A stretch of 64,000 nucleotides of DNA from Nitrospirota bacterium (GTDB lineage: Bacteria > Nitrospirota > UBA9217). Within the stretch, counting starts at the first letter, position 1. Each line of letters begins with the position of its first letter. The notes under the pieces are model-generated. The model ran no database searches and was not told where the DNA came from. It worked only from the letters and a program-made list of their open reading frames with translations. Positions 35,962 through 52,461 of the stretch are shown piece by piece. The translations under genes were made by a program, and so were the position numbers. Where the stretch lies: the NCBI GenBank assembly GCA_963840455.1, contig CAWIYV010000011.1:1-64000 (forward strand), given 5' to 3'.

Positions 35962-37791
35962 TCAGTTCACGACAGCCATCCGCTGCAGCTCCCGGCACGC
36001 TTCTCGCTCCCCGGCGGCGCAGGCGATACGGAAATCGGCTATCGCGCGATCCCTGTCACCTCTTCTTAGGTTCAGCCTCCCGCGGGACACATGGGACGAC
36101 CATGAGGACGGGTCCAATGCGATCACCCGGTCAAGGTCCCGCATCGCGTCGGGATATCTGCCCAGAGCGATGAATGCAAGCGCGCGATTGCTGTAGGCCG
36201 TCGTTACTGATGGGTCGAGAGCGATCGCCGCGGTAAAATCCTGCAGCGCCAAATCAATCCGGCCGAGACTTCCCCGCAGCGCCCCCCGGTTGATATAGAC
36301 CTGAGGAAACGACCGATCGAGTGCGATGGTCCGGTCATAGTCCGCCAGCGCCTGGGCGATCCGTCCCTCCTCGCGAAAGGCGTTCCCCCGCTTGAAGTAT
36401 GCCTCGGGGACGCGCTCCGGCTCCCGAGCGATGAGGCCCGTCCAGAGGTCGATGGTGCTCCTCCAGATTCCGATCTGCTGTACGGTCAGCAGGGCAAGAA
36501 GCGCTATGCCGGCGATACCGGCACCGGCAAGAAGACCGCGGGAGGCCCTTCTCCGGCCGCTGATCATCTCGGTCCTGGAGGCGATCCAGGCGGCTGCAAG
36601 GCCCGTGAGCAGAAAGGGGCCGAGGCTGGGAAGATAGGTGTAACGGTCGGCCATTGGCTGCAACCCGACCTGCACGATCCCGATGACCGGCAGCAGCGTT
36701 ACGAGGTAATACCCCCACACCGACAGCCACAGCCGATTTTTTTTCACGGCGACGATGCATGCCGCTGTCATACCGGCGACGAGCAGAACGGGGACCGCAA
36801 ACTCCGCAGACGCCAGCGACGCCTCGCGAGGATAGGGATAGAGCGGCAGGAGCTGTATGGGCAAGAGCATCTTCGCGAGATAGGCCGTGACGGCGTGGGC
36901 AGCGACCAGGAGCCTCGTCGCGGCCGGGGCAAGCGTCAAGGCTTCCGTAGCACCCCCGGATCGCTGCGCCGCCAGCGTGAGGACGGACGATAGCGCGCTC
37001 AACGCGAAGAATGGCAGTTTCTCGAGCAGGAGTGCCGGCAGCCGCTTCAGCGTGCCGATCCTTCCGAAGGGATGCCAGTCCAGGATCAGGAGCACGAAGG
37101 GGAGGCTGACCGCCATCGGTTTGCTCAGCAAGGCGAAGGCAAACAACAGGAGAGTAAGCGTGTGCCAGCGACCTGGGAATAGCACCGCCATCCCCGAACG
37201 GTCTTCCGCCCGCCCGGTCGCGCCCCGCACAAAGCGTGTATAGGCCAGAAGGCTGAGCAGAACGAACAGGCCGCACAGCACATCCTTCCGCTCGGCAATC
37301 CAGGCCACCGACTCCACGTGCAGGGGATGCACACCGAACAGGATCCCGGTCACGGCTCCGGCAAGCGCGATGCGGCTGCCCGTGAGGATGGTTGTCATGC
37401 CTGCTCGCTCCGCCCCCTCCCGATAGGTCTCCAGCAGCAGAACACTGACGAGCGCCACGAGAAAGGTGTTGACCGAGTGTACGAGAACGCTTGTCAGATG
37501 ATGCCCCCGTGGGTCGAGTCCCCAGACAGCATAGTCCAGCGCGTGAGACAGCCAGGTCAGCGGATGCCAGTTGCTCGCATGGAATGCGGTGGCCGCCCAT
37601 TGGAAGAACGATGGATCCAGGGAGCGGATATGCAGGTTGTTGACCACGTACAGGTCATCGTCCCAGAGGACAAAATCGTTCCGGAGCGCGGTAAGATAGA
37701 GTCCGAGCGTGATGAGCGACACAATCACCGCGGGAGCGTACCGTGTCCGGCGTTGGTACGTCACATCCGTCGTTCCTTGAGCTAATGCCAT
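35962..37791 (-). CDS. TMTC-like membrane glycosyltransferase (GT-C) with C-terminal TPRs
   Basis: FVLWDD, WHPLTWLS, HPLHVESVAW..ERKD, LLSKP, ADRYTYLP, TPR repeats. Confidence 0.85.
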   Translation of the reverse strand: MALAQGTTDVTYQRRTRYAPAVIVSLITLGLYLTALRNDFVLWDDDLYVVNNLHIRSLDPSFFQWAATAFHASNWHPLTWLSHALDYAVWGLDPRGHHLTSVLVHSVNTFLVALVSVLLLETYREGAERAGMTTILTGSRIALAGAVTGILFGVHPLHVESVAWIAERKDVLCGLFVLLSLLAYTRFVRGATGRAEDRSGMAVLFPGRWHTLTLLLFAFALLSKPMAVSLPFVLLILDWHPFGRIGTLKRLPALLLEKLPFFALSALSSVLTLAAQRSGGATEALTLAPAATRLLVAAHAVTAYLAKMLLPIQLLPLYPYPREASLASAEFAVPVLLVAGMTAACIVAVKKNRLWLSVWGYYLVTLLPVIGIVQVGLQPMADRYTYLPSLGPFLLTGLAAAWIASRTEMISGRRRASRGLLAGAGIAGIALLALLTVQQIGIWRSTIDLWTGLIAREPERVPEAYFKRGNAFREEGRIAQALADYDRTIALDRSFPQVYINRGALRGSLGRIDLALQDFTAAIALDPSVTTAYSNRALAFIALGRYPDAMRDLDRVIALDPSSWSSHVSRGRLNLRRGDRDRAIADFRIACAAGEREACRELQRMAVVN

Positions 37792-37808
37792 CATTGTTTC
37801 CCTATTCC

Positions 37809-39852: not shown

Positions 39853-40230
39853 ATGTCAACAAAGAGGACAGGACCCGATCAGCAGGAACAGCTCATCGCC
39901 GAAGCGCGGAAGAACCGCGAACTGCGGGAGCAGGGCTACCGCGAGCAGGCGTTGAAGCTCTTTCCCCATGTCTGCGGCCGGTGCGGCCGGGAATTCGAAG
40001 GCAGGAAGCTGCGCGAGCTCACGGTCCACCACAGGAACCACAACCACGACGACAATCCGCCCGACGGAAGCAACTGGGAGCTGCTCTGCGTTTATTGCCA
40101 CGACAACGAGCATCAGGAATACATGGATGAGGGTACGTTCGGAAAGACAACGCCAGAGGAGGAGAGGAAGCCATCAACAACCTACAAGCCCTTCGCCGGC
40201 CTCGACGACCTTCTGAAGAACAAGAAGTAG
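39853..40230 (+). CDS. yajD: YajD family HNH nuclease
   Basis: YREQALKLFP..CGRCGREF, LTVHH, NNPPDGSNWELLC.YCHD.EH-like motif. Confidence 0.92.
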   Translation: MSTKRTGPDQQEQLIAEARKNRELREQGYREQALKLFPHVCGRCGREFEGRKLRELTVHHRNHNHDDNPPDGSNWELLCVYCHDNEHQEYMDEGTFGKTTPEEERKPSTTYKPFAGLDDLLKNKK

Positions 40231-40313
40231 TGCCTGCTTCGTTTCGTTCGGCCCTGTTGATCGGGCGGTGAGCTACAGCCGGCCTGCGTTCTGCATATTA
40301 CGGAAGACCCTAT

Positions 40314-40646
40314 CTACTTATGATGGCAGTTCGCACAACTGAGGTAATCGGACGTTGAAAAAGCCTGGGTCCCATCATGACAGTGACCGCAGGACGCGCC
40401 CAGTTGCATTTTTCTCATGGACATTACATTAGCACCCTTCTTCATCTCGAAGAGCGCAGATGAAAATCCATGGACCTCATGACAAGTCGAACAAGTAAGA
40501 CCTTTCGAGGTATGGAGCGTTCCATCAAATATGACCTGTCCCGCTCCCCTCCCCTCGTAGATGATATTAGCCCCGCAACTCTCTGCACGCGCATTTCCGG
40601 CAAGTGAACAAAGAAGCATGCATATGATCAGCAATAGATAATTCAT
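40314..40646 (-). CDS. c7-type triheme cytochrome c, secreted
   Basis: Signal peptide; CSTCH, CGHCH, CANCH; G.V.F...H and G.SCG.CHDG..AF pattern. Confidence 0.88.
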   Translation of the reverse strand: MNYLLLIICMLLCSLAGNARAESCGANIIYEGRGAGQVIFDGTLHTSKGLTCSTCHEVHGFSSALFEMKKGANVMSMRKMQLGASCGHCHDGTQAFSTSDYLSCANCHHK

Positions 40647-40689
40647 GACCGTCTCTTTCTCCCGAGGCAATCTCATTCTCCTGATAGCA

Positions 40690-40801
40690 TTGAAGCTCCC
40701 TGCAGAGAACTGCAGGGAATCTTCGATCCTCTGGATAATATATTTAGCCTAATCGCTCGCCAACCCCGCATCAAGCTGCGTGGAATGCGCTCGCTCCTGG
40801 A
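40690..40801 (-). mobile_element. IS200/IS605-type MITE, copy 4
   Basis: ATGAA|tccagg...gggagcTTCAA on minus strand. Confidence 0.85.
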
Positions 40802-40881
40802 TTCATCCCGCTCCCGAAATAATAATGTCACCGCTTCATCGTAAGATTTCAAGTTAACGGAATGTCATTGGCATGGATTTT

Positions 40882-40898
40882 AGCAACTAACATGCCAA
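40882..40898 (-). promoter_or_regulatory. sigma54 -24/-12 promoter for triheme cytochrome
   Basis: TTGGCATGTTAGTTGCT = TGGCA-N6-TTGC (GG-N10-GC). Confidence 0.6.
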
Positions 40899-41259
40899 TC
40901 ATAAGAACTGATATAACAGGGCATTATTCAAGCTCTCTGAATCTAACATTGCTGAATCTGGTGTAATTACCATATTATCTTTGGGAATTCCCCAAACTGA
41001 TAGTTTTTGCTCTTTCGGCTCGGTTTTTTCATGCCCGGAAAAAAAGCATAAGCGAATGTTGGATCGATGCATGTGGGATTCCTTAGAGGAACAGACAACC
41101 GGGAAGTTCATTTCATAATTGTAATCATGAATTTATTGGACCATAATAACGACAAACTGCTTCCTCATGTACTGACGATCTCCTGATCGAGACGTAACTT
41201 TCATCTTGGCAATCTTAGTCAGCAGCCGGAAGCAAGTCCTGCATGCACATGAGGAGACA

Positions 41260-42045
41260 ATGGGTAAGCTTGACGGAAAAGTCGCAATCATAACCGGTGG
41301 AGGGCGAAGCATTGGCAGTGCCATTGCCGAAGGGTTCAGGAACGAAGGCGCCCGCGTTGTTGTGACCGCTGCACGAGAGCGGCAGGAGATCGATGCCTTT
41401 GTTTCCTCGGGCCGCCCGGATCGGGCGCTCGCACTGCTTGCCGATGTGACCGATCCCCGGGCATGCGAGCGCGTGGCGGCTGAAACAATCGCTCGCTTCG
41501 GCAAACTCGACGTGCTCGTGAACAATGCAGGCCGGGGCATGAAATATATCAGTCCGCGTTTCTTTACTGTGCCTACGCGCTTCTGGGAGGCCGACCCCGA
41601 AGCCTGGCGAATGGTGATCGACACGAACGTGAATGGTCCGTTTTATATGGCACGGGCCGCGGTGCTGCATATGAAGCGGGACCATCATCAAGGTGACCAT
41701 GAACTACGAGACCATGAAGCGCAAGGGCGTCTCTCCCTACGGCCCATCAAAGGCCGCGCTCGAGTCAGAGACCATCATCTGGACACAGTACCTTGAGGGT
41801 ACCGGCATCACGGTCAACGAGATCCTTCCCGGCGGAGCGACGGCAACAGGCATGATCCCGGACGGCCTGTCCGAGGAGCTTCGTTCCCGGCTGCTCAATC
41901 CGGAGATCATCGTTCCTCCGACAATCTTCCTGGCCTCCGCCGCAGGCTCACCGGCAGGCGACTTACGGCGACAGAATGGACGCCTCAGAACCCTGACGGC
42001 GTGCCGGCATCGATCGGTATTGGCGGAGAAGTCAACCCGAAGTAG
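41260..42045 (+). pseudogene. SDR oxidoreductase, two frameshifts
   Basis: TGGGRSIG, NNAG in first frame; YGPSK in second frame after ~41678; C-terminus (LTGRRLTATEW) in third frame after ~41945. Confidence 0.8.
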
Positions 42046-42304
42046 GGTCACAGAAGATGTTGATAAATGGAAATTGTATTGTCGTTATTTTGTTGACCAT
42101 AAATCTAATTCAGTCGTGTAATACGCAGCGCCATTTTTTTCCTGTATCCGGCGACAGTTGCACCTCCCGGAAACTGCATAATTCATCTCGAATCAACGTC
42201 ATTATGGTTATTTCGCCCATCCATTTCGGAAATTAACCCCTTCTCCCTTCACCCTCAAATCCGCACGTTGCCATAATCCTTTGATATGATAAAAATTGCA
42301 ACAA

Positions 42305-42320
42305 TGGCGACAAAATTGCA
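42305..42320 (+). promoter_or_regulatory. Candidate sigma54 promoter upstream of omcS homolog
   Basis: TGGCGACAAAATTGCA (GG-N10-GC) in an AT-rich region. Confidence 0.45.
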
Positions 42321-42372
42321 TTTTTCTAAATTAAATTAGACCACTTTTTAAACTATTTTTTTGGTTTAGCCT

Positions 42373-43635
42373 ATGCAAATAATGAATTTAATCCTTTTTC
42401 TTGTCGCTGCAGTCGCCGTAGTGTTCGCGTTCAGCGGCACGAGCTTCGCGTTCCATTCCGGCGGCGTCGCCGAGTGTACGGGCTGCCACGAGATGCACGG
42501 CGCAACGGGCGCCAACTTTCTGCAGGGCACCGACCAGAGCTCGACCTGCCTGATCTGCCATGGCGAGCCTGGCCAGTCCAGCTACCATGTGTTGACCCCG
42601 GATTCACAGATGCCTGCTGGCGTCGCTCCCCTCAACATGGGCCCCGGCGGCGACTTCGGCTGGCTGAAGAAGGACTACTATTTCGTGATCCGCGGCTCGA
42701 ACAACACCGAGATGGGCCAGACCCATGGCCACAACATCATCGCTGTTGACGAGGGCCTCGTCGCTGACACCGACAACCCGACGGCCCCGGGCGGCACGTT
42801 CCCGGGCGGCCAGCTCTCCTGCGTAGCCTGCCATGACATGCACGGCAAAGCCCGCTACAACTTCGGCGGTACCGGCTATGCTCTGACCGGCCAGGCCATC
42901 TACACCTCCGGTTCCTACGGCGCGCAGCCGACGGCCGTGTCCCATGGCTCCTATGCAACCGGTGTGTACCGCCTGCTTAACGCTGGCAAAACCGTTGACG
43001 GCGTCACCTTCGGAGCACCGCCGGTCGCAGTGGTGAACAGCACCTACAACCGCTCGGAGTTCTTCACCCAGACCCGTACGGCCTACGGCTCCGGCATGGG
43101 CGACTGGTGCGGCACCTGCCATGCTGACATGCATTCGGGAAGCGGAAATAACAGTGGGATTATCAGGCATCCGGTGGACCGACGCCTGACGGGCGGGATT
43201 GCCAGAAATTACAACAATTACACGAAGAGCGGGGACATGACTGGCTCGGCAGCCACTTCCTACCTGTCTCTGGTTCCCTTCGAGGAAGGCGTTACGTACA
43301 GCACGGCGAACATCAACAGCCTCAAAAGCCATGCCCAGACCGATGATTCCTACCTGAACGGACCAATAACGACCGGCAATTCGGCATCGTCGCAAGTGAC
43401 GTGCCTTTCCTGCCACAGGGCCCACGCATCAGGGTTCATGTATATGACCAGATGGCAGAACAAGAGCAATTTCATCATCGCGGACGGCATGTATCCGGGC
43501 AGCGACAACGCCCAGTCAGCGCTCGCCCGCGGACACAGCAGCCAGGAGACCGCAGCCGCCTACTACAATAGGAACGTCACCAAGTTCAGCGGCTTCCAGC
43601 GCTCGCTCTGCAACAAGTGCCATGCGGAAGACTAA
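42373..43635 (+). CDS. omcS: OmcS-like hexaheme c-type cytochrome (nanowire family)
   Basis: Mature N-terminus FHSGGVAECTGCHEMH; six CxxCH; GGDFGW, TAPGGT, TYNR, YLSL.PFEEG, CLSCHRAHASGF, QR.LCNKCHA.D blocks as in Geobacter OmcS. Confidence 0.9.
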   Translation: MQIMNLILFLVAAVAVVFAFSGTSFAFHSGGVAECTGCHEMHGATGANFLQGTDQSSTCLICHGEPGQSSYHVLTPDSQMPAGVAPLNMGPGGDFGWLKKDYYFVIRGSNNTEMGQTHGHNIIAVDEGLVADTDNPTAPGGTFPGGQLSCVACHDMHGKARYNFGGTGYALTGQAIYTSGSYGAQPTAVSHGSYATGVYRLLNAGKTVDGVTFGAPPVAVVNSTYNRSEFFTQTRTAYGSGMGDWCGTCHADMHSGSGNNSGIIRHPVDRRLTGGIARNYNNYTKSGDMTGSAATSYLSLVPFEEGVTYSTANINSLKSHAQTDDSYLNGPITTGNSASSQVTCLSCHRAHASGFMYMTRWQNKSNFIIADGMYPGSDNAQSALARGHSSQETAAAYYNRNVTKFSGFQRSLCNKCHAED

Positions 43636-43668
43636 TCTACACTTAGTTACAGCATGATGTTTATACTT

Positions 43669-43700
43669 AAAAAGGGCTGGAGAAATCCAGCCCTTTTTTT
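43669..43700 (+). terminator. Intrinsic terminator after omcS homolog
   Basis: aaaagggctgga-gaaa-tccagccc-tttttt. Confidence 0.8.
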
Positions 43701-43921
43701 AGACAAAAGGTCTCAAAATGAATATTAAGGGAACCTCTCGAATCATTTCTGGTATACACATTTCAAATCGAAATCGTTTCATTCGTACTGCTTTGAACCC
43801 TGTAGAGTCGTAGGTGAAGTGCGTAGAATCTGCGTTCTCTTCACCGCCCCTCCATTCCCCCTTCTCTCCTTGATCTTCCCTGCTGTTGTTTCCGGACGCA
43901 CTGTCCGGGTCAGGAGCCGTA

Positions 43922-44354
43922 TCACGTGCGGTCCGCAGGCTGAGGCACGCCCGGCGCATGGGATGGTCCGGGAACAATCGGTAGAGGAGCTTCATGATGT
44001 ACCGCTGGTCCTCGGCCTCTCTGTTGAAGCTCCCTGCAGCAAGCTGCAGGGAATCTTCGATCCTCGAGGTAGTAATAGTGTGTTCTAATCGCCCGCTAAC
44101 CCTCAGCAAGCTGCGGTAAATGCACTCGCTCCTGGATTCAACACCTTGATCAGGACCTTCGATAGGGGCATGCTGTTGAAGTGGCCGAAATGTTCATGGA
44201 GGGACCGGATCACGAGCCAGTGGTGGCCGTCGAGGGCGAGGCCGTCGATGTCCGCGAGAAGGCGCGCAAAACCCTCGGACCAATCTCCGGCATCGACGAG
44301 ATGGCCATTCTCGTCGAGAGGGATGTGCTTCCCCTCGAAGGATACCAATACCAC
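43922..44354 (-). pseudogene. DsrC/TusE family sulfur-relay protein, interrupted by MITE and further eroded
   Basis: LDENGHL..DWSE..A..LA...HW.VI N-half; ..LYRLFP..P.RRAC after the element; tail PQPADRT* in another frame. Confidence 0.8.
44024..44136 (-). mobile_element. IS200/IS605-type MITE, copy 5 (inside dsrC/tusE-like gene)
   Basis: TTGAA|tccagg...gggagcTTCAA; exact removal of 113 bp restores the reading frame. Confidence 0.9.
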
Positions 44355-44376
44355 ATGGCGTCCTGACGGTTCAATC

Positions 44377-46275
44377 CTACCGCTTCAGCGCCTCAAGCTC
44401 CTCCCACCGTTTGAACGCCTCGGCAAGCTCCCGTTCCACGTTCTCCAGCCGGGCCGTGGTCGACGCAACCTTATTGCCGCTCTCGCGGTAGAATGCCGGG
44501 TCCGCCATCGTCGCATGGAGCATCTGCTGCTCAGCCTCAAGTTCTTCGAGGCGCTTCGGCAGTTCATCGAGCTCCTTCTGCTCCTTGAAGGAGAGCTTGC
44601 GTGACTTTGCCGATGCTGGTCGTGGCGCATCCTTCTTCTCTTCAACCCTTGCAGGAACAACGGGAGGCTCTTCCTTCAGCCTCTTGCTCTGGCGCAGCCA
44701 GTCATCATAGCCGCCCACGTATTCGTTCACCCTGCCTTCATCCTCGAACACCAGGGTGCTGGTGACCACGTTGTTGATGAACGCGCGGTCGTGGCTCACA
44801 AGCAGCACGGTCCCCGCGTACTCCATCAGAAGCTCCTCGAGAAGGTCCAGCGTCTCAATGTCCAGGTCGTTCGTGGGTTCATCCAGCACCAGCACGTTCG
44901 AGGGCTTCGTAAACAGCTTAGCGAGCAGAAGACGGTTCCGTTCGCCGCCGGACAGCACTTTCACGGGGCTGCGTGCCCGGGCCGGGGCGAAGAGGAAATC
45001 CTGGAGATAGCCGATGATGTGGCGATTCGCGCCATTGATGGTCACATAGTTGCTGCCGTAGGCCACGTTGTCCTGCACGGTCTTCTCGTCGTCGAGCTGG
45101 GCCCGGTGCTGGTCCAGGTAGGCCACTTCGATGTTGGTGCCGAGCCTGATCGTTCCCTCCTGGGGCTTCAAGTCCCCGAGCAGGAGCTTCAGCAGCGTGG
45201 TCTTGCCTGACCCGTTCGGCCCGATGATGCCGATCTTGTCCCCGCGGATGATGGTCGTGGACAGTCCCTGTATGACCGTCCTGCCCGCGTAGCCGAAGCT
45301 CACATCCTTTGCTTCGATCACGAGCTTGCCCGTGCGTTCGGACTCCTGCATCTGGATGTTCGCAGTCCCGATCTTCTCGCGCCGCTCGCTCCTGACCCGG
45401 CGAAGCTCCTTGAGCGCACGCACGCGGCCCTCATTCCGCGTCCGGCGCGCTTTCACTCCCTGGCGGATCCAGACCTCCTCGGCTGCAAGCTTCTTGTCAA
45501 ATTTCGCGTTCTCGACCGACTCGGCGTCCAATGCCGCCTGTTTGAGCTCGAGGTAGGACCGGTAGCTTCCCGGCCAGCTCGTGAGCCTCCCCCGGTCGAG
45601 GTCGATGATCCGCGTGGCAAGCTTCTGAAGCAGCGCCCGGTCATGGGTCACGAACAGGAGGGTCCCGCCGTAGGTAAGCAGGAACTCCTCGAGCCAGGCG
45701 ATGGACACGATGTCGAGATGGTTCGTTGGCTCATCGAGGAGCAACAGGTCCGGCTGGCCGGCCAGCGCCTTCGCGAGCAGCACCCGCCGCTTCAGACCGC
45801 CCGAGAGCTCGGAGAACTCGGTATCTTCGGGAAGCTTCAGCCGCGTCAGGATCTCATCGACCTTCTGCTGCATCTGCCATCCGCCGGCTGCCTCGAACCG
45901 GTGCTGTACGTCCTCGAGCTCTGCCATCAGCTTCTCGCTGTGGTCGTGGCTGAGCCGCCCGCTGATATGGTGATAGTCGGCGAGCAGCCGCCCCTGTTCG
46001 CCGAAGGCGCCCGATACGACGTCGAACACGCTGCCGCGTATGTCGTTCGGCACTTCCTGGGTGAGGAGGGTCGTGCGCAGCCCCTGCTGGAACACGACCA
46101 CGCCTCTGTCGGGCTTCACCTCGCCGGTGATGACCCGCATGATCGTGGACTTGCCGGTCCCGTTGCGGCCGACCAGGCAGACACGCTCGCCCGGCTCGAT
46201 CTGAAGGTCGATGTTCTCGAGCAAAGGCGGACCGCCGAACCCTACACTGATGTTCTGCAGGCTGAACAATGGCAT
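44377..46275 (-). CDS. uup: ABC-F ATP-binding protein Uup
   Basis: Two ABC domains, WIRQGVKARRTRNEGRVRALK linker, KLSFKEQKEL..LP C-terminal coiled coil. Confidence 0.95.
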   Translation of the reverse strand: MPLFSLQNISVGFGGPPLLENIDLQIEPGERVCLVGRNGTGKSTIMRVITGEVKPDRGVVVFQQGLRTTLLTQEVPNDIRGSVFDVVSGAFGEQGRLLADYHHISGRLSHDHSEKLMAELEDVQHRFEAAGGWQMQQKVDEILTRLKLPEDTEFSELSGGLKRRVLLAKALAGQPDLLLLDEPTNHLDIVSIAWLEEFLLTYGGTLLFVTHDRALLQKLATRIIDLDRGRLTSWPGSYRSYLELKQAALDAESVENAKFDKKLAAEEVWIRQGVKARRTRNEGRVRALKELRRVRSERREKIGTANIQMQESERTGKLVIEAKDVSFGYAGRTVIQGLSTTIIRGDKIGIIGPNGSGKTTLLKLLLGDLKPQEGTIRLGTNIEVAYLDQHRAQLDDEKTVQDNVAYGSNYVTINGANRHIIGYLQDFLFAPARARSPVKVLSGGERNRLLLAKLFTKPSNVLVLDEPTNDLDIETLDLLEELLMEYAGTVLLVSHDRAFINNVVTSTLVFEDEGRVNEYVGGYDDWLRQSKRLKEEPPVVPARVEEKKDAPRPASAKSRKLSFKEQKELDELPKRLEELEAEQQMLHATMADPAFYRESGNKVASTTARLENVERELAEAFKRWEELEALKR

Positions 46276-46308
46276 ACGAAATCTCACGAGCACATAGTGA
46301 ATCAAGGA

Positions 46309-46421
46309 TTGAAGCTCCCTGCAGCAAGCTGCAGGGAATCTTCGATCCTCAAGGTAGTTTTAGTTATCCAAATCGCTCGCTAACCCCGTAGCAAGCTACG
46401 GGGAATGCGCTCGCTCCTGAA
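46309..46421 (-). mobile_element. IS200/IS605-type MITE, copy 6 (perfect hairpins)
   Basis: GTGAA|ttcaggagcgagcgCATTccccgtagcttgctacgggg...GATTccctgcagcttgctgcagggagcTTCAA. Confidence 0.88.
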
Positions 46422-46989
46422 TTCACGATATTCTCGTCATGCCCTCTCTTTTCTCAGGCTGTAAAATCCATGGCAAACACATTGATGTATCATTTGAAAA
46501 TTTAACTGATATTCCATTTTCAAGCTCTCTGTCCAGCGTCTAATGTCATAGCATCTCCACAACAGTTAAGATCTTTTCTGTGAATAAGTCACAGGACTTT
46601 TTCACAAATTAGCAATAATAAAAGAGCACTATAAACGACAGAAGGGATAATAGCACTTATCAAATTATGTTATGAATTATATAGTTAAGAAACTACTAAT
46701 TTAAGAATTATTTATTAAATAATAAAAAAATATATATTGACTGTCTGTACAAGTGGTGCTATTTAATGATGCACCTATAATACAACGTAAGATGTATGTC
46801 GTTTCTAAATGAATTAACACTAAACTCAACCAGGATATCCCATCTCCGCCTGAGATGTATCGTAGTCCGGTATTACGTTGCTTATTATAATATTTACTTC
46901 GACAATATACCATAACCAAGTCCTGGTGAACTGTTCTTACGATAACTATTAATCCAGTGTATCTTACTGATTCTTCGGGAGGGAGTGCC

Positions 46990-48030
46990 ATGAAAACAAG
47001 CGCTGCACGAGAAAGAGTCTTGTTCCGTACCATCCTGTCTCTGTCAGTTCTTTCTTTTTTTCTCGCAACGGGTCTGTATCCGGTAAACGCTGCGGATATG
47101 GTGAATGTAGGAAAGATAACACCCGATCCTTCCCGATTATGGAGCCCGGGCAGGTTGGCAGTGGACAACGAGGGCACGGTATACGTGGTGGACAGTTACA
47201 AGAACCGTGTCCAGAAATTTGACGGTAAGGGGAACCCTCTCGGGTCGATCCCGGTCTCGCGACCTTCGGCCATAGCCGCTTCGCCTAACGGGAACGTGTA
47301 CATCGGATCCAATGACGCGTACGCTGTGGCGATCTATAAGCGGGGAGAAATAACAGGATACCTCGGTGCCGGCAAGAACGAGTTCGGATCGATCAGCGAT
47401 ATCGCCGTTGACAAAAGCACGGACGATATCTATGTCGTTGACCTAAAGAAGCATGTCGTCAAGATCTATGATGCGAGAGGGTCGGCAAAGGGAATGCGGG
47501 ACGGTTTCACTGCCCCCGCTGCAGTAGCGGTTACGGACACGGTGGTCGTTGTCCTGGATGCGCCCGCGGTCCCCTGCCCCACCACCATCATGGTCAAAGG
47601 GGAAGTGATCCCCTGTCCCGAGTGCACCGGCCCGTGCAGCGGGTCGAGGATCTCGGTACTTGACAAGGCGGGCAATCTCATGCAGAGCATTACGGAATCG
47701 GACGCGAAAAAAGACAACATGGTACGGCCCGTCGCCCTGGCAGCTGACACCCAGGGGAATATCTATGTCGCCGATGCCCTGAGGAAAAACATCCTCGTCT
47801 ATAACCTGCAATGCAAGTTCATCGGCGAGCTGGTGAGCGCCCAGGACGATCTCCATGGGCCGGTGTCCCTCGCGCTTTCCCGTGACAACAGTCTCTATGT
47901 GTCGTCGAGCGAGACACGGAGCATCGTGGAGATCGGGCTTGCCGGCAGGCTGAATGCAGCTTCGACGGGATCACTGAAATTTCAATCAAAGCAAGGCGCC
48001 GGGATATCCCTCGGCGCCCTGGGATATTAG
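46990..48030 (+). CDS. Secreted NHL-repeat beta-propeller protein
   Basis: Signal peptide; repeated P..LAVD..G.VYVVD...NRVQKFD units; Cys-rich insert (CP..CPECTGPC). Confidence 0.88.
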   Translation: MKTSAARERVLFRTILSLSVLSFFLATGLYPVNAADMVNVGKITPDPSRLWSPGRLAVDNEGTVYVVDSYKNRVQKFDGKGNPLGSIPVSRPSAIAASPNGNVYIGSNDAYAVAIYKRGEITGYLGAGKNEFGSISDIAVDKSTDDIYVVDLKKHVVKIYDARGSAKGMRDGFTAPAAVAVTDTVVVVLDAPAVPCPTTIMVKGEVIPCPECTGPCSGSRISVLDKAGNLMQSITESDAKKDNMVRPVALAADTQGNIYVADALRKNILVYNLQCKFIGELVSAQDDLHGPVSLALSRDNSLYVSSSETRSIVEIGLAGRLNAASTGSLKFQSKQGAGISLGALGY

Positions 48031-48042
48031 GAGGGGCTGAAC

Positions 48043-51000
48043 ATGAAGAACATGCTGATCGTCGTGATGCTTCTGACAGGATTCTTTATCGTTCCCGTTG
48101 CTTCGGCACAGATCGTTGATGCCCCTCACAATGCAAGTGTCAGCATGTCGTGCAGCGACTGCCACATCGATCCCTATTCATTCATCTATACCGATGACAT
48201 GTGTCTGTCGTGCCACAATAACACCACGGGCGGCGGGTACAGTCTTCGGAGCGCGCCAAAAGTGCTCGCTCACTCAAGCGGGAACACGAGCAGCAAGTAT
48301 GGGAATTGGTCAACGCAGTGCCTTGACTGCCACAGCAAGCACACTTGGGAGCAACGTGCTGTCTATCAGTCGGGAATCTTCCTTGTAACAGGAACGATTA
48401 CGTCCATTACCGACAATGGGGACGGCACGACCACTTTTGGCTACAGTAACCTTGTAGAACAGAAGCCCGGCTGGGCGGATTACACGAAGTGGAACAGGAA
48501 ATCATCCGGCAATTTTTTCGGCGGCAATGAGCGGGGGCTTATTCTCTATCCCAATACGACCACATATCAGAATCAAAGTTCAGCGAATTTTGAAATGTCC
48601 TCGGCAACCGCAACGACCATGACGGTGAAGGGATCAATAAATATAGCATTTCCAACGGCGATTTCATCCGGACTGGTTGCAGTTGGTAAGCCCTTTGCAC
48701 TCGCCTATGGCCAGTTCGTTAACAGCACCCTCATTACTCCTTCCAACCTCTGGAAGCCTAGCCACTTCATTGAAAATAGTGGTATTTTTTCATTTGCCTA
48801 CAGCACTGCCATACCACCGAGCACCAAGGACCCAAGTGTCGACAGCATCTGCCAGGTATGCCACACCCAGACGCTTCACTGGAGGGCGGACGGCACTCTT
48901 GCGGACCACTACAACAGCCAAGACTGCGCCACCTGCCACAAGCACGAGGAAGGATTCAAGGTCAGCTGCGACGTCTGCCATCTGGCGCCGCCGACGACAG
49001 GAAAGCACATGGCTCACTTTGATGCGGGATTGGCCGATTACGGGTCCACAACGATCCAGTCATCGCCTGCCGCTTACGGCTTCAGCTGCGGGATCTGTCA
49101 TGACGGGACACATCTCAATACGACGGCGAACCCGCGCAGCGTCGAAGTGGTCTTTGCTGGCGTGGCCAGGCAGGGCAGTGCCACGAGCGCGTCCTATGCG
49201 CCTTCGACCTTCTCCGTTGACGACCCCGGCAGGGGGTATACGTTCAACTACAGCAACGGCGCCTGCTCCAATGTGTATTGCCACGGGAATTATCCCGGGA
49301 GCGGCAAGAACGCTTCGGTGACGTTCAACACCGGCACCGCCCCTTGCGGTTCATGCCACAACGCGTCGAACACGGCACCGCCTGCGAGCGGATCCCATGT
49401 CGCGCATGCATCGAACACGCGGTACAATCTGAGCTGTTCCTTATGCCATGCCGGTGAGATCAGCGGGGCCGGTCCTGCTTCTTATACGATAGCCGACAAG
49501 CAGAAGCATGTCAGCGGCAATGTCGACTGGGCCTTTGATACGGGCGACACCCGCGTATCGCTGTCTTCCGGCTACAGCATCCCATCGGGCGCGGCCATGC
49601 CTTCCAACGGCACGGTCCCGAGGCCTTACGGGACCTGTTCCACCACCTATTGCCATAGCGACGGCACCTCCGTTGCCGCGCTGAACCTCCAGCCGAACGT
49701 CTCTCCGGTTTGGGGCTCGGGGTCACTAGACTGCACCGCCTGCCACGGCATGCCGCCGTCATATCCGAACGGATCACCCAAGGCGAATGGCCACACTGCC
49801 CATGCAGAGAACGCCTGCAACACCTGTCATGCTGTCACGACATCAGACGGGATCACGATCACCTCTTTTGCAAACCATGTGAACAAGGCCTATGATGTCA
49901 ACCCCAATGTCGCGTCAGGCGCGACCTTCACCTACACCTTTGGGGCCACCGGCGGGTCGTGTACGAACATCTCCTGCCATGGCGGCAACACGGCGACGTG
50001 GGGAGGTCCCCCACTTAAATGTTCTAACTGCCATCTCGGACCGCAGGACGCAGATGATTATGCGTTCGGCAACGGCGTCATCGCGATGGCGAGTGCAAGC
50101 CAGTGGTCGTCGACCGGCCACGGGCGGCCTGCAACAGCGGGCAATTACCTGCAATCGGGCAATCCCGCGGCAGGTTTCGACGCTGCTGCCGGGACCGGCG
50201 ACTCCTGTCTCTACTGCCATGATAACACGGTAGGGCACAATGTTGGGCCAAATCCCTTCAGGCTCAGATGGACCATCGGTCCCGATGGCCAGAACGGTAA
50301 TTGCCAGAAGTGCCACAAGCCGGGTTCGACCGGATACGTGAGCGGCGTCGACGGCACGCTCCCGAGCATGAATGCCAGCGCAGCAACGAAGATGGAAGAC
50401 TATCACTGGCTTATGGCGCCCGGCGGCAAGCATACCAATGTCCGCAACGGCGGTAGGTTCTGCTGGGACTGCCATGACCCCCATGGCGATATGAACGTTG
50501 CTATGATACAGAATGCAGTCGCAAAACGGAACGATTGGAACGGTACGACCGGCTTCGGGCTCCCGACGCTCACTGTTGCGACCAGCTTTACGACCATGAA
50601 CACCTGGGGGAGCTATGTCAATCCGTCGGGTACCGGTGTCTGCCAGGTCTGTCACGAGATTACGTCACACTTTACCGGCTCTACGAACTACAATACGAAC
50701 CACAATCCCGGCGCATCCTGCACCGGTTGCCATTCACATCTCGGATCCGCCTCGGTGAGTGGCGATGCCTTCCCCGGCGCCGAGTCGAGCGGAGGTGTGG
50801 TCTGCAGCGGATGCCACAACGACCTGTATACGGGTATGAACAGCGCGGCAAACTCAACGTATCATCACCTGATGACGTCGGACGCGCCGACCTATACGAG
50901 CGGGACCTGTCTCCAGTGCCATGTGGATCACAATATCTTCCGGCCGGATGTGAACACGGCCAACACCGTGGGACGGTCCGCTAATCTCAGGACGAACATC

Positions 51001-52461
51001 AACACTGCGGTGCCATCACAGCCGACGACGGTAGGGTATACCAACACCGACTTCCTCTCCGCCGATACAGACGGCGGCATCTGCCTCAGCTGCCACAAAG
51101 CGCAGCTGGCCAAGGGTTATCCCCAGCCTGATGCCACGACCGCAACGCCTGCCGTTGGCAAGGCGGACTATCAGGCGAGCGGCCACCAGTATGTTGCCGC
51201 CTCAACGTTCGGAACAGGAGGTTCGACGTTCAACGCCAACTGCTCCAAGTGCCATAACGACACGCTGAATCCCAAGAGCTCCTTCAATGCCCAGAGCAGC
51301 GCGAACAAGTTCGGCAATCACTCGTCCACCCTCAGGAGGGTCCTTGCAGCCCTTGGCATCGCTTCACCTGCGGATCCGCTCGAGGAGCAATTCTGCTACC
51401 AATGCCACAGCGGCGCGGGGCCGAACGATTACTACGGCGTGAAGGCGATGTCCGCGGCATCCAGGGACATTCAGACCGTGTTCGGCAAGACATACAAGCA
51501 CAATGTTGCCGGGTATAGCGGCCGGCACAGGTCCTCAACGACCGATGAAACCCTGGGCTACATCAGCGCCAACAAACATGTAGAATGCGAAGACTGCCAT
51601 AATCCGCATGCAGCGCAGCCGGGAACGCACACCCGGGGCAGCGCCGCACTTGCGAACGTCCTGAAGGGCGTCGACGGAGCAATTGCCAGCTATCCGTCGA
51701 ATACGAACTGGCCTGCGACCGGCACGCCGCCGCGGTCGAACTTCACCTATGCCGCAACACAGACCTCGACCGCAGAGTACCAGATCTGCTTCAAGTGTCA
51801 TTCCTACGCAAATACGAATGTCCTGACCTGGGGCGGGACCGGCGCTGCTGCCTGGACCGATGTGGGGCTCGAGTTCGATCCCAACAACCAGTCCTACCAT
51901 CCGGTGGTCCAGGCTTTGCCTGCAACCGATCCGAACGCGAACTACGGATCGAATCGGCTGGCATCGGCGCAGCTATCGGGCGGATGGACGCCGGGCCAGG
52001 TCATGACCTGCTCCGACTGCCATGATTCCGATTCCGCCGCATCGACGGGACCCCACGGCTCAGCGGTAAAATGGATGCTCGGCGGCACGAACAAGTCTTG
52101 GCCCTATCAGGGAACAGCCGGCAACGGGACATCCTCGGGGACATTCTGGACCCTGAGCAACAGAACGGCCAGCAACGGTACGGCGAACGGGCTGTTCTGC
52201 CTGAACTGTCATACTTTGAACGCTTCCGGCCACATCCATTTCGAAGAGACCGATCATCAGAGGATCGCCTGCGTCGGTTGTCATGTCAGGGTCCCGCATG
52301 GATATCGGGAATCGCGATTGATCGCAGCAGGTACGGTTCCCGCGCGTTACTACCCGAACGGCAACGGAGGCGGTACGAAGTACATCAACAGATTCACCAA
52401 AGCATCGAATTACAGTAATTACAGCGAAAGCAATTGCTCTACGGTCAGCGGCTGCCATTAA
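48043..52461 (+). CDS. Large secreted multiheme cytochrome c (CxxxxCH/CxxCH domain family)
   Basis: Signal peptide; by manual count 27 CxxCH, 3 Cx4CH and a terminal Cx5CH. Confidence 0.93.
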   Translation: MKNMLIVVMLLTGFFIVPVASAQIVDAPHNASVSMSCSDCHIDPYSFIYTDDMCLSCHNNTTGGGYSLRSAPKVLAHSSGNTSSKYGNWSTQCLDCHSKHTWEQRAVYQSGIFLVTGTITSITDNGDGTTTFGYSNLVEQKPGWADYTKWNRKSSGNFFGGNERGLILYPNTTTYQNQSSANFEMSSATATTMTVKGSINIAFPTAISSGLVAVGKPFALAYGQFVNSTLITPSNLWKPSHFIENSGIFSFAYSTAIPPSTKDPSVDSICQVCHTQTLHWRADGTLADHYNSQDCATCHKHEEGFKVSCDVCHLAPPTTGKHMAHFDAGLADYGSTTIQSSPAAYGFSCGICHDGTHLNTTANPRSVEVVFAGVARQGSATSASYAPSTFSVDDPGRGYTFNYSNGACSNVYCHGNYPGSGKNASVTFNTGTAPCGSCHNASNTAPPASGSHVAHASNTRYNLSCSLCHAGEISGAGPASYTIADKQKHVSGNVDWAFDTGDTRVSLSSGYSIPSGAAMPSNGTVPRPYGTCSTTYCHSDGTSVAALNLQPNVSPVWGSGSLDCTACHGMPPSYPNGSPKANGHTAHAENACNTCHAVTTSDGITITSFANHVNKAYDVNPNVASGATFTYTFGATGGSCTNISCHGGNTATWGGPPLKCSNCHLGPQDADDYAFGNGVIAMASASQWSSTGHGRPATAGNYLQSGNPAAGFDAAAGTGDSCLYCHDNTVGHNVGPNPFRLRWTIGPDGQNGNCQKCHKPGSTGYVSGVDGTLPSMNASAATKMEDYHWLMAPGGKHTNVRNGGRFCWDCHDPHGDMNVAMIQNAVAKRNDWNGTTGFGLPTLTVATSFTTMNTWGSYVNPSGTGVCQVCHEITSHFTGSTNYNTNHNPGASCTGCHSHLGSASVSGDAFPGAESSGGVVCSGCHNDLYTGMNSAANSTYHHLMTSDAPTYTSGTCLQCHVDHNIFRPDVNTANTVGRSANLRTNINTAVPSQPTTVGYTNTDFLSADTDGGICLSCHKAQLAKGYPQPDATTATPAVGKADYQASGHQYVAASTFGTGGSTFNANCSKCHNDTLNPKSSFNAQSSANKFGNHSSTLRRVLAALGIASPADPLEEQFCYQCHSGAGPNDYYGVKAMSAASRDIQTVFGKTYKHNVAGYSGRHRSSTTDETLGYISANKHVECEDCHNPHAAQPGTHTRGSAALANVLKGVDGAIASYPSNTNWPATGTPPRSNFTYAATQTSTAEYQICFKCHSYANTNVLTWGGTGAAAWTDVGLEFDPNNQSYHPVVQALPATDPNANYGSNRLASAQLSGGWTPGQVMTCSDCHDSDSAASTGPHGSAVKWMLGGTNKSWPYQGTAGNGTSSGTFWTLSNRTASNGTANGLFCLNCHTLNASGHIHFEETDHQRIACVGCHVRVPHGYRESRLIAAGTVPARYYPNGNGGGTKYINRFTKASNYSNYSESNCSTVSGCH

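Follow-up and report, generated by a model that had tools for sequence, protein, structure and literature searches.

An OmcS-Family Hexaheme Cytochrome Gene in an Uncultured Nitrospirota Bacterium, Located Apart From an osc-Like Companion Cluster

Introduction

OmcS of Geobacter sulfurreducens (GSU2504; PDB 6EF8, 6NEF) is a hexaheme cytochrome seen as a filament in Geobacter, and here we describe a gene of the same family at 42373..43635 on the forward strand of a 64-kb window from a Nitrospirota genome (contig CAWIYV010000011.1 of assembly GCA_963840455.1); by the window we mean the whole stretch of DNA analyzed, positions 1 to 64,000. OmcS has twelve axial heme ligands, all of them histidines, with eleven coming from the same subunit and one, that of heme 5, from the neighboring subunit, according to the structural description of Filman et al. 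(PMC6584659); the same inter-subunit coordination is stated by Wang et al. (PMC9473688). In Geobacter, OmcS wires are charged by c7 cytochromes of the periplasm, as described by Portela et al. (PMC10954620), and a GEMM riboswitch precedes omcS in G. sulfurreducens (as noted in PMC1950547). The osc (omcS companion) operon has been assigned roles in folding (OscH), secretion (OscE/F/G) and morphology (OscD) in the summary given by PMC13194489, and large beta-barrels are said in PMC13712944 to go with most OmcS and OmcE regions.

OmcS homologs are described as widespread by Portela et al. (PMC10954620) and by a 2026 review (PMC12954529), and omcS is listed by FeGenie-type surveys in Thermodesulfovibrionia (PMC8478452) and in a Nitrospirota metagenome-assembled genome (MAG; PMC11312239). 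A literature search for OmcS together with Nitrospirota, or with phyla, did not turn up any work on OmcS filaments in Nitrospirota. An earlier note on this DNA had presented the gene as a full-length OmcS homolog whose non-Geobacter host may build conductive filaments, and thereby implied a novelty that we consider overstated: the novelty of an OmcS-type gene in Nitrospirota is low, the family being common in the lineage and omcS in Nitrospirota MAGs being already in print. The new points are modest and concern the separate regulation of this orphan copy and its location between repeats, in an interval that varies.

Comparison of the Window Protein With OmcS

The gene starts with ATG and encodes a c-type cytochrome of 420 aa with the N-terminus MQIMNLILFLVAAVAVVFAFSGTSFA|FHSGGVAECTGCHEMH and the C-terminus QRSLCNKCHAED. 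Its six CxxCH motifs begin at residues 35, 59, 150, 246, 344, and 413 (nucleotides 42475-42489, 42547-42561, 42820-42834, 43108-43122, 43402-43416, and 43609-43623, forward strand), and the protein has exactly 12 cysteines, every one within a CxxCH motif. A hydrophobic stretch (residues 5–23) is followed by an SFA|F site, both read directly from the sequence. F1 of mature OmcS aligns with F27, which supports cleavage after Ala26; taken with these two sequence features, the match supports a signal peptide of 26 residues (42373-42450, forward strand), as had been proposed. The mature protein then has 394 residues, compared to 407 in OmcS.

In a phmmer search against all PDB chains, the sole protein matched was OmcS of G. 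sulfurreducens (6EF8/6NEF; E 1.5e-97), and the alignment covers the entire mature chain, with residues 27–420 of the query facing residues 1–407 of the OmcS chain (6ef8_A). In the printed alignment OmcS begins with FHSGGVAECEGCHTMH and finishes with QRALCNKCHAKD, and the termini quoted for both proteins in the earlier note agree with it and with the sequence. Each of the six CxxCH motifs is paired with an OmcS motif in the same order; the N-terminal register FHSGGVAEC.GCH.MH, the C-terminus QR.LCNKCHA.D and the mature size near 400 aa are also shared, while several loops contain insertions or deletions relative to OmcS.

The fold agrees well with this alignment. An AlphaFold2 model of the window protein, built on an alignment of 96 relatives (45–89% identical to the query), has a mean predicted local distance difference test (pLDDT) score of 83.6 and a predicted template-modeling (pTM) score of 0.83. 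The Foldseek comparison of this model with PDB yields 6ef8_A at E 4.5e-38, with TM scores of 0.82/0.85, root-mean-square deviation of 3.0 A and 46% identity, and no other match at E <= 0.001. Hence, by every sequence and fold criterion examined, the window protein is a member of the OmcS family, and its description as a full-length homolog with six CxxCH motifs stands.

Exactly 12 histidines are invariant in all 96 relatives (H28, 39, 42, 63, 120, 154, 157, 250, 266, 348, 351, and 417), and three more are nearly so (His72 in 92/96, His118 in 94/96, His254 in 95/96). The OmcS residues aligned with the twelve invariant positions are histidines throughout. Among them, His16 of OmcS is paired with His42 (codon 42496-42498, forward strand), and His332, the proximal ligand in the CLSCH motif, with His348. 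The invariant set matches OmcS in both the number and the positions of ligands, and each distal histidine would be expected, from this correspondence, to act as an actual ligand. The earlier statement that the equivalent of His16 is conserved holds, and His42 and the eleven other histidines are kept in 96/96 relatives.

The window protein differs from OmcS by its moderate identity (46%), by the phylum of its host, by the location of its gene away from companion genes, and by the lack of a GEMM riboswitch; moreover, the filament has been seen for OmcS in Geobacter, whereas the window protein is known here from sequence and model. A prediction of the homodimer, run without controls on two copies of residues 27–420, gave scores of 0.00 and 0.01 against a mark of 0.42 and speaks neither for nor against binding.

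Host, Phylogenetic Position and Prevalence

The host is an uncultured Nitrospirota bacterium, not Geobacter, as the earlier note had suspected. The contig has 924,579 bp, of which the window covers the first 64 kb, and the genome comprises 4.03 Mb in 14 contigs, with scores of 100% completeness and 0.83% contamination. The contig starts with a partial 16S rRNA gene on the reverse strand (1..1332), which is genuine (Rfam RF00177, 1335 bits) and has its 3' end cut by the contig end. Across these 1332 nt it is 98% identical to the 16S of three out of five named MAG genomes searched, all three carrying the depositor label Nitrospirota bacterium; the remaining two genomes yielded no 16S match.

To place the protein, a maximum-likelihood tree (quick IQ-TREE) was built for 81 OmcS-like proteins, that is, 76 open reading frames (ORFs) from 78 named loci and five copies from the genome itself. 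The sequences had at least 300 aa, at least five CxxCH motifs, an F[HS]xGG start and a CxKCH end; ORFs failing these filters were dropped uncounted, and the tree contains zero Geobacter rows. The window protein branches first in a clade of nine rows (99% support), five of them labeled Nitrospirota and four from its own genome, and this clade is nested in a 23-row clade (97%) with 16 rows labeled Nitrospirota, the labels being those of the depositors. In the nearest ESM Atlas cluster (score 0.98, 87 members), Nitrospirota again predominate.

We considered whether the cytochrome gene and the 16S gene might come from different organisms through an assembly or binning artefact. The 16S gene does lie at the contig end, the commonest place for a misjoin. 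On the other side, both genes share one 925-kb contig of a genome scored as complete with little contamination, the flanking Dus and ABC-F genes encode products 84–97% identical to same-genus counterparts, and the nearest relatives of the window protein agree with the 16S in pointing to Nitrospirota-labeled MAGs. The contig thus looks sound, and we regard an artefact as very improbable. A Geobacteraceae host, a chimeric assembly and a loss of distal histidines had been named in the earlier note as possible grounds for abandoning its claim, and we found none of the three.

Recent transfer from Geobacter was rejected, as the copy nests among Nitrospirota-labeled sequences, in a tree that has no Geobacter rows. 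Horizontal transfer deduced from composition was rejected as well, the G+C content of the gene (0.606) being equal to that of the 64-kb window (0.591); the low regional G+C is that of intergenic DNA.

The genome encodes dsrA (562.6 bits at a cut-off of 392.85), 59 mechanically called ORFs with at least three CxxCH motifs, and heme-maturation genes (five matches to PF01578).

Relatives of the window protein are numerous. An exhaustive HMMER search of 1.84 billion representatives at 50% identity identified 574 clusters at E <= 0.001, 359 at 1e-10 and 178 at 1e-30, and a word-index search yielded 3543 proteins at E <= 0.001 among 8000 candidates. Out of 427 pattern matches among GTDB species genomes, 382 encode a relative. 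In a sample of 401 genomes of the phylum, a match at E <= 1e-20 is present in 38, including 25 of 63 genomes (approximately 40%) in the family of the host and two of five in its genus. The best copy in this sample is at most 63% identical to the window protein, and metagenomic relatives reach 89 and 85%.

Paralogs and the Companion Cluster

Five full-length OmcS-family paralogs and one fragment are encoded in the genome, which resembles the situation in Geobacter with its OmcT, OscC (GSU2501) and OmcJ, where several OmcS-like paralogs occur per genome, some of them in tandem. Apart from the window copy, the full-length paralogs are all found on contig C10: at C10:482941 (64% identical to the window protein), at C10:484400 (47%; the second gene of a tandem pair with the former), at C10:510675 (65%), and at C10:527235 (62%). 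Three C10 copies are mutually 82–83% identical, and the product of C10:484400 forms a deep clade of its own in the 81-protein tree. The fragment (C11:613541-613762, reverse strand) comprises 74 residues, 66% identical to residues 36–109 of the window protein, in a lone open frame of 111 codons, and is probably a remnant of a sixth paralog.

The four C10 paralogs lie within a co-directional region of 45 kb. It opens with a beta-propeller gene (331 aa) and two OmcS-like genes, followed by genes for a propeller lipoprotein (477 aa), a 766-aa protein and a 188-aa LpoB/GNA1162-like lipoprotein. After an interruption that includes a gene for a 1930-aa Calx-beta protein, there come genes for a SurA-like peptidylprolyl isomerase (PPIase, 605 aa), a 26-heme cytochrome, a 16-heme cytochrome, and TPR/PMT_2-type glycosyltransferase-like proteins, and, finally, two more OmcS-like genes, one with an NHL propeller gene ahead of it.

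The 766-aa protein matched no Pfam or NCBIfam family, and NCBIfam and PDB sequence searches with the companions returned only generic propeller and PPIase models. The model of the 766-aa protein (pLDDT 88.1) is a large all-beta barrel with an inserted domain, and its best Foldseek neighbors are MtrB of the Mtr complex (E 6e-11), TonB-dependent receptors, and FimD/PapC ushers, with TM scores of 0.2–0.34. As these scores are low, we assign the protein only to the class of large outer-membrane barrels.

Such companions are common at other loci. By tblastn at 78 OmcS-homolog loci with about 11 phylum labels, many of which stop at contig ends before companions could appear, an upstream propeller was found in 68/78, a downstream propeller in 65/78, the barrel in 60/78, the small lipoprotein in 53/78, and the PPIase in 17/78. 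The earlier note had suggested looking for osc-type assembly genes elsewhere in the genome, and an osc-like companion cluster is indeed observed at C10:481697-505019; there is no such clustering around the window copy.

OscH is reportedly a PPIase chaperone, OscEFG are said to be channel-like, and OscD propeller-like. The C10 cluster has the protein classes given for OscD, OscEFG, OscH and OscI/J, namely beta-propellers, a large barrel with lipoproteins, a PPIase, and multiheme cytochromes of very large size, with the genes in one direction around the OmcS-like genes. By these comparisons, the cluster appears to match both the published roles of the osc operon and the published remark on beta-barrels, and its core is kept in 53 to 68 of the 78 loci. 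Unlike the osc operon, it is located in trans to the window gene, and it is broken by the Calx-beta gene and insertion-sequence-like ORFs. The latter, at C10:490000-494000 between the small lipoprotein and Calx-beta genes, are repeated ORFs with near-identical N-termini (MPKTAVPPFTPYS...) and no Pfam family, and look like remnants of insertion sequences.

Membrane proteins with a PMT_2-like N-terminal part and C-terminal TPR are encoded both at C10:517738-525565 and in the window at 35962-37794. These paralogous proteins may glycosylate surface proteins.

Regulation and Expression

A candidate sigma-54 promoter element of the –24/–12 type, TGGCGACAAAATTGCA, is located at 42305..42320 on the forward strand and stops 52 nt before the ATG, in an upstream region with 39% G+C. 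The pattern is matched four times in the window versus 1.13 matches expected, and 6 of 100 shuffles reach four; rpoN is present in the genome. A scan for sigma-70-type promoters gave three weak, uninformative matches versus 1.3 expected. A second sigma-54-like match, TGGC-N7-TTGCT, is seen at 40882-40897 on the reverse strand, directed toward a c7-type cytochrome gene and about 206 nt upstream of its start, with a copy of a dispersed repeat in between.

An intrinsic-terminator hairpin, GGGCTGGA-GAAA-TCCAGCCC with a run of seven T, is found at 43669..43698 (forward strand), 34 nt past the stop codon. Its minimum free energy is –22.7 kcal/mol (z –4.15), and none of 200 shuffles is equally stable. 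Due to this strong hairpin with a T-run after the stop codon, the gene looks monocistronic. A consensus terminator scanner reported zero sites in 42000-43800 and missed this hairpin.

The C10 paralogs carry signals of a different kind. Rfam models identify in the C10 region six riboswitches of the GEMM-I clan, five of them c-di-GMP-I-GGC (RF03167) and one c-di-GMP-I (RF01051), at C10 positions 481600-481679, 482836-482914, 510205-510289, 510411-510495, 525892-525969, and 527134-527212. Every one of them is directly upstream of an OmcS-like or propeller gene, with a tandem pair before C10:510675. This resembles the GEMM-I/c-di-GMP-I riboswitch upstream of omcS in Geobacter, with the differences that five C10 aptamers are of the GGC variant and that the window copy has none: at E <= 1 over 40000-48100, Rfam detects no riboswitch before it, the sole row being an irrelevant small RNA (E 0.43). 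As it lacks the c-di-GMP-I riboswitches of its paralogs, the window copy probably becomes active under conditions other than theirs.

Parts of the ORF are covered, at approximately 96–99% identity, by contigs of two RNA libraries, a sediment metatranscriptome and a freshwater library, each from a different study; examples are 42624-43133 (510 nt) with nine differences and 42649-43133 (485 nt) with seven. At their 5' ends, these contigs diverge before 42388 toward sequence resembling the start of the C10 paralogs. They represent genes of relatives, with DNA carry-over possible, and give a weak hint of expression. Some parts of 40200-44400 had no cover in the RNA or DNA runs, to which we attach no meaning, as contigs are no proof of absence. 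Shares of sampled words are at most 0.25 in all sequencing runs, and we claim no habitat from these runs.

Proposed Mode of Action

The most likely mode of action of the window protein, in our estimate with a probability of roughly 55%, is polymerization, the protein being an accessory, divergent OmcS paralog. It would be exported via Sec, acquire its hemes from the cytochrome-maturation genes of the genome, and be passed outward in trans by the C10 machinery, that is, by propellers, the large outer-membrane beta-barrel, the small lipoprotein, and the SurA-like PPIase. Subunits would stack head to tail, so that His42 of one subunit would complete the ligation of heme 5 (CLSCH, residues 344–348) in the next one. 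The resulting insulated heme wire could carry electrons to or from extracellular minerals or partner cells; periplasmic c7-type cytochromes could feed it, including the one whose gene lies 1.7 kb upstream. The window copy might serve as an alternative or a co-assembling subunit, and it may not be the main subunit of the filament.

A number of observations weigh against polymerization. The gene stands alone: the nearest cytochrome gene is about 1.7 kb away, the companion cluster lies on another contig, and no barrel, propeller-lipoprotein or PPIase genes are adjacent. Its divergent product sits on a long terminal branch (0.44) and is only 62–65% identical to its three closest in-genome relatives. 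The 14 residues that directly follow His16 in OmcS are absent, which places the deletion beside the inter-subunit contact. Of the four hexaheme paralogs of G. sulfurreducens, only OmcS is reported to form a filament, and none is reported for its three close relatives (PMC12954529, PMC6584659). These four points also speak for the main rival explanation, a non-polymerizing soluble or surface-attached hexaheme carrier, monomeric like OmcT, OscC or OmcJ, that would act in the periplasm or at the outer surface and possibly move electrons between the neighboring c7-type cytochrome and other conduits, e.g., the nearby 27-heme protein. We consider such a carrier possible, if rather unlikely. The machinery for export exists in trans, and His42 is invariant in 96/96 relatives, its sole known role, in OmcS, being the ligation of heme 5 in the neighboring subunit; because the number of invariant histidines is exactly twelve, heme 5 would be one ligand short in a monomer, except if His42 folds back.

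The remaining points against polymerization concern signals and conservation. We saw no clear Shine-Dalgarno sequence ahead of the ATG, and strict sigma-54 matches number 72 genome-wide, approximately the expectation from composition, so the candidate promoter could be a chance match. In three of the four same-genus genomes for which the corresponding interval was retrieved, it contains no OmcS-like gene and is occupied instead by a pair of genes encoding 712 and about 290 aa and by other cargo, while in a fourth one it contains two OmcS-like genes just 44–45% identical to the window copy. The copy is apart from the machinery and not common to same-genus genomes, and filament building by this protein, suggested in the earlier note, keeps the standing of a proposal.

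This genome, which is near-complete and of high quality, provides one well-documented case of a sulfite-reductase-bearing Nitrospirota bacterium with a full apparent OmcS-wire toolkit, that is, five subunit paralogs, a conserved companion cluster, riboswitch control, and c7 carriers. It adds support to the published view in which OmcS-type wires occur widely beyond Geobacter and may play a part in the flow of iron-, sulfur- and interspecies-linked electrons in wetlands, sediments and the subsurface, but no new question is opened.

Genomic Neighborhood and the Variable Interval

Upstream of the cytochrome gene we observe genes for Dus and an HNH endonuclease, then a gene for a triheme c7-type periplasmic cytochrome of 120 aa on the reverse strand (40317..40676), divergent and 1.7 kb away, and a split short-chain dehydrogenase gene. 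The c7 gene product matches PF14522 (9.6e-13), TIGR04257 (62.7 bits at a cut-off of 40) and 3ov0_A (4.8e-30). As a triheme c7-type protein encoded near an OmcS-family gene, it may be comparable to PpcA-E and other c7-type cytochromes charging OmcS wires (in the account of PMC10954620); among PDB entries, however, it matches best the dodecaheme 3OV0 protein, in its c7-type domains, and not a PpcA entry.

A dispersed repeat of approximately 117 bp flanks the segment 40806-44023, which contains the cytochrome gene, with one copy on the left at 40690..40805 and one on the right at 44024..44140, in direct orientation (both forward strand); a third copy is found at 46309-46425. In the genome this repeat has 192 copies of at least 100 nt among 311 blastn hits, with the median identity of 84%, and it is common in same-genus genomes, with many more copies. 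It matched no Rfam family.

The surroundings of the segment are stable, and the segment itself is not. In the three same-genus genomes without an OmcS-like gene at this place, the Dus/HNH genes and the ABC-F gene are conserved, with 84–87% amino-acid identity for Dus and ABC-F. One freshwater metagenome DNA contig (depth 7.9) joins position 41081 to position 44157 with six other letters in between, skipping 3075 bp that include the OmcS-like gene; this contig is a population variant without the gene. From the variability of the interval, the identity values, and the metagenome data, we conclude that the window copy represents a divergent line of long standing within the Nitrospirota OmcS clade, located at a variable hot spot, and that it did not arise by recent duplication.

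The same data bear on another explanation, in which the gene is a dispensable passenger on the repeat-bracketed segment, was acquired recently, has hardly any function today, if any, and is heading for loss. The segment lies between direct repeats and also carries the split dehydrogenase gene, the interval varies in every same-genus genome examined, and the variant without the gene exists, if known from a single contig. Yet the ORF is intact over 420 codons with 12/12 cysteines and 12/12 ligand histidines retained, its G+C content is in line with that of the window, it is accompanied by a promoter-like element and a strong terminator, metagenomic relatives are 85–89% identical to it, and RNA-library contigs cover it. 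We find a passenger gene improbable.

There is a further and quite speculative idea, which we would not expect to hold: the orphan copy could be a swappable cassette subunit, with Nitrospirota retaining one osc-like machine for export and assembly that serves divergent OmcS-type subunits exchanged or added at repeat-bracketed hot spots, each under its own regulation, such as sigma-54 for the window copy and cyclic-dinucleotide riboswitches for the others. If so, one cell could produce filaments of differing surface or redox properties, or mixed ones, depending on conditions, and a dsrA-bearing organism could employ them for purposes other than metal reduction, among them electron uptake or interspecies transfer.

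Downstream of the cytochrome gene we observe a short DsrC-like ORF, the ABC-F ATPase gene, an NHL-repeat beta-propeller gene (46957..48030, forward strand), and, directly after it, a gene for a 1472-aa cytochrome with 27 CxxCH motifs (48043..52461, forward strand). The propeller is of the same protein class as those preceding OmcS-like genes in the companion clusters, and the large cytochrome has Geobacter-type CxxxxCH/CxxCH domains (TIGR01904). The pair 46957-52461 may constitute another extracellular electron conduit.

The dehydrogenase gene within the bracketed segment extends over two frames on the forward strand (41206..42121; frames 41206-41796 and 41693-42121), which overlap near 41700, and is probably a pseudogene, sequencing error being the alternative. 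A similar N-terminus starts a 1018-aa ORF in a same-genus genome (L099:5914-8970). The dispersed repeat, in turn, contains two internal hairpins, in the 46309-46425 copy TCCCTGCAG....CTGCAGGGA and CCCCG...AAGCT.CGGGG, with variants in other copies.

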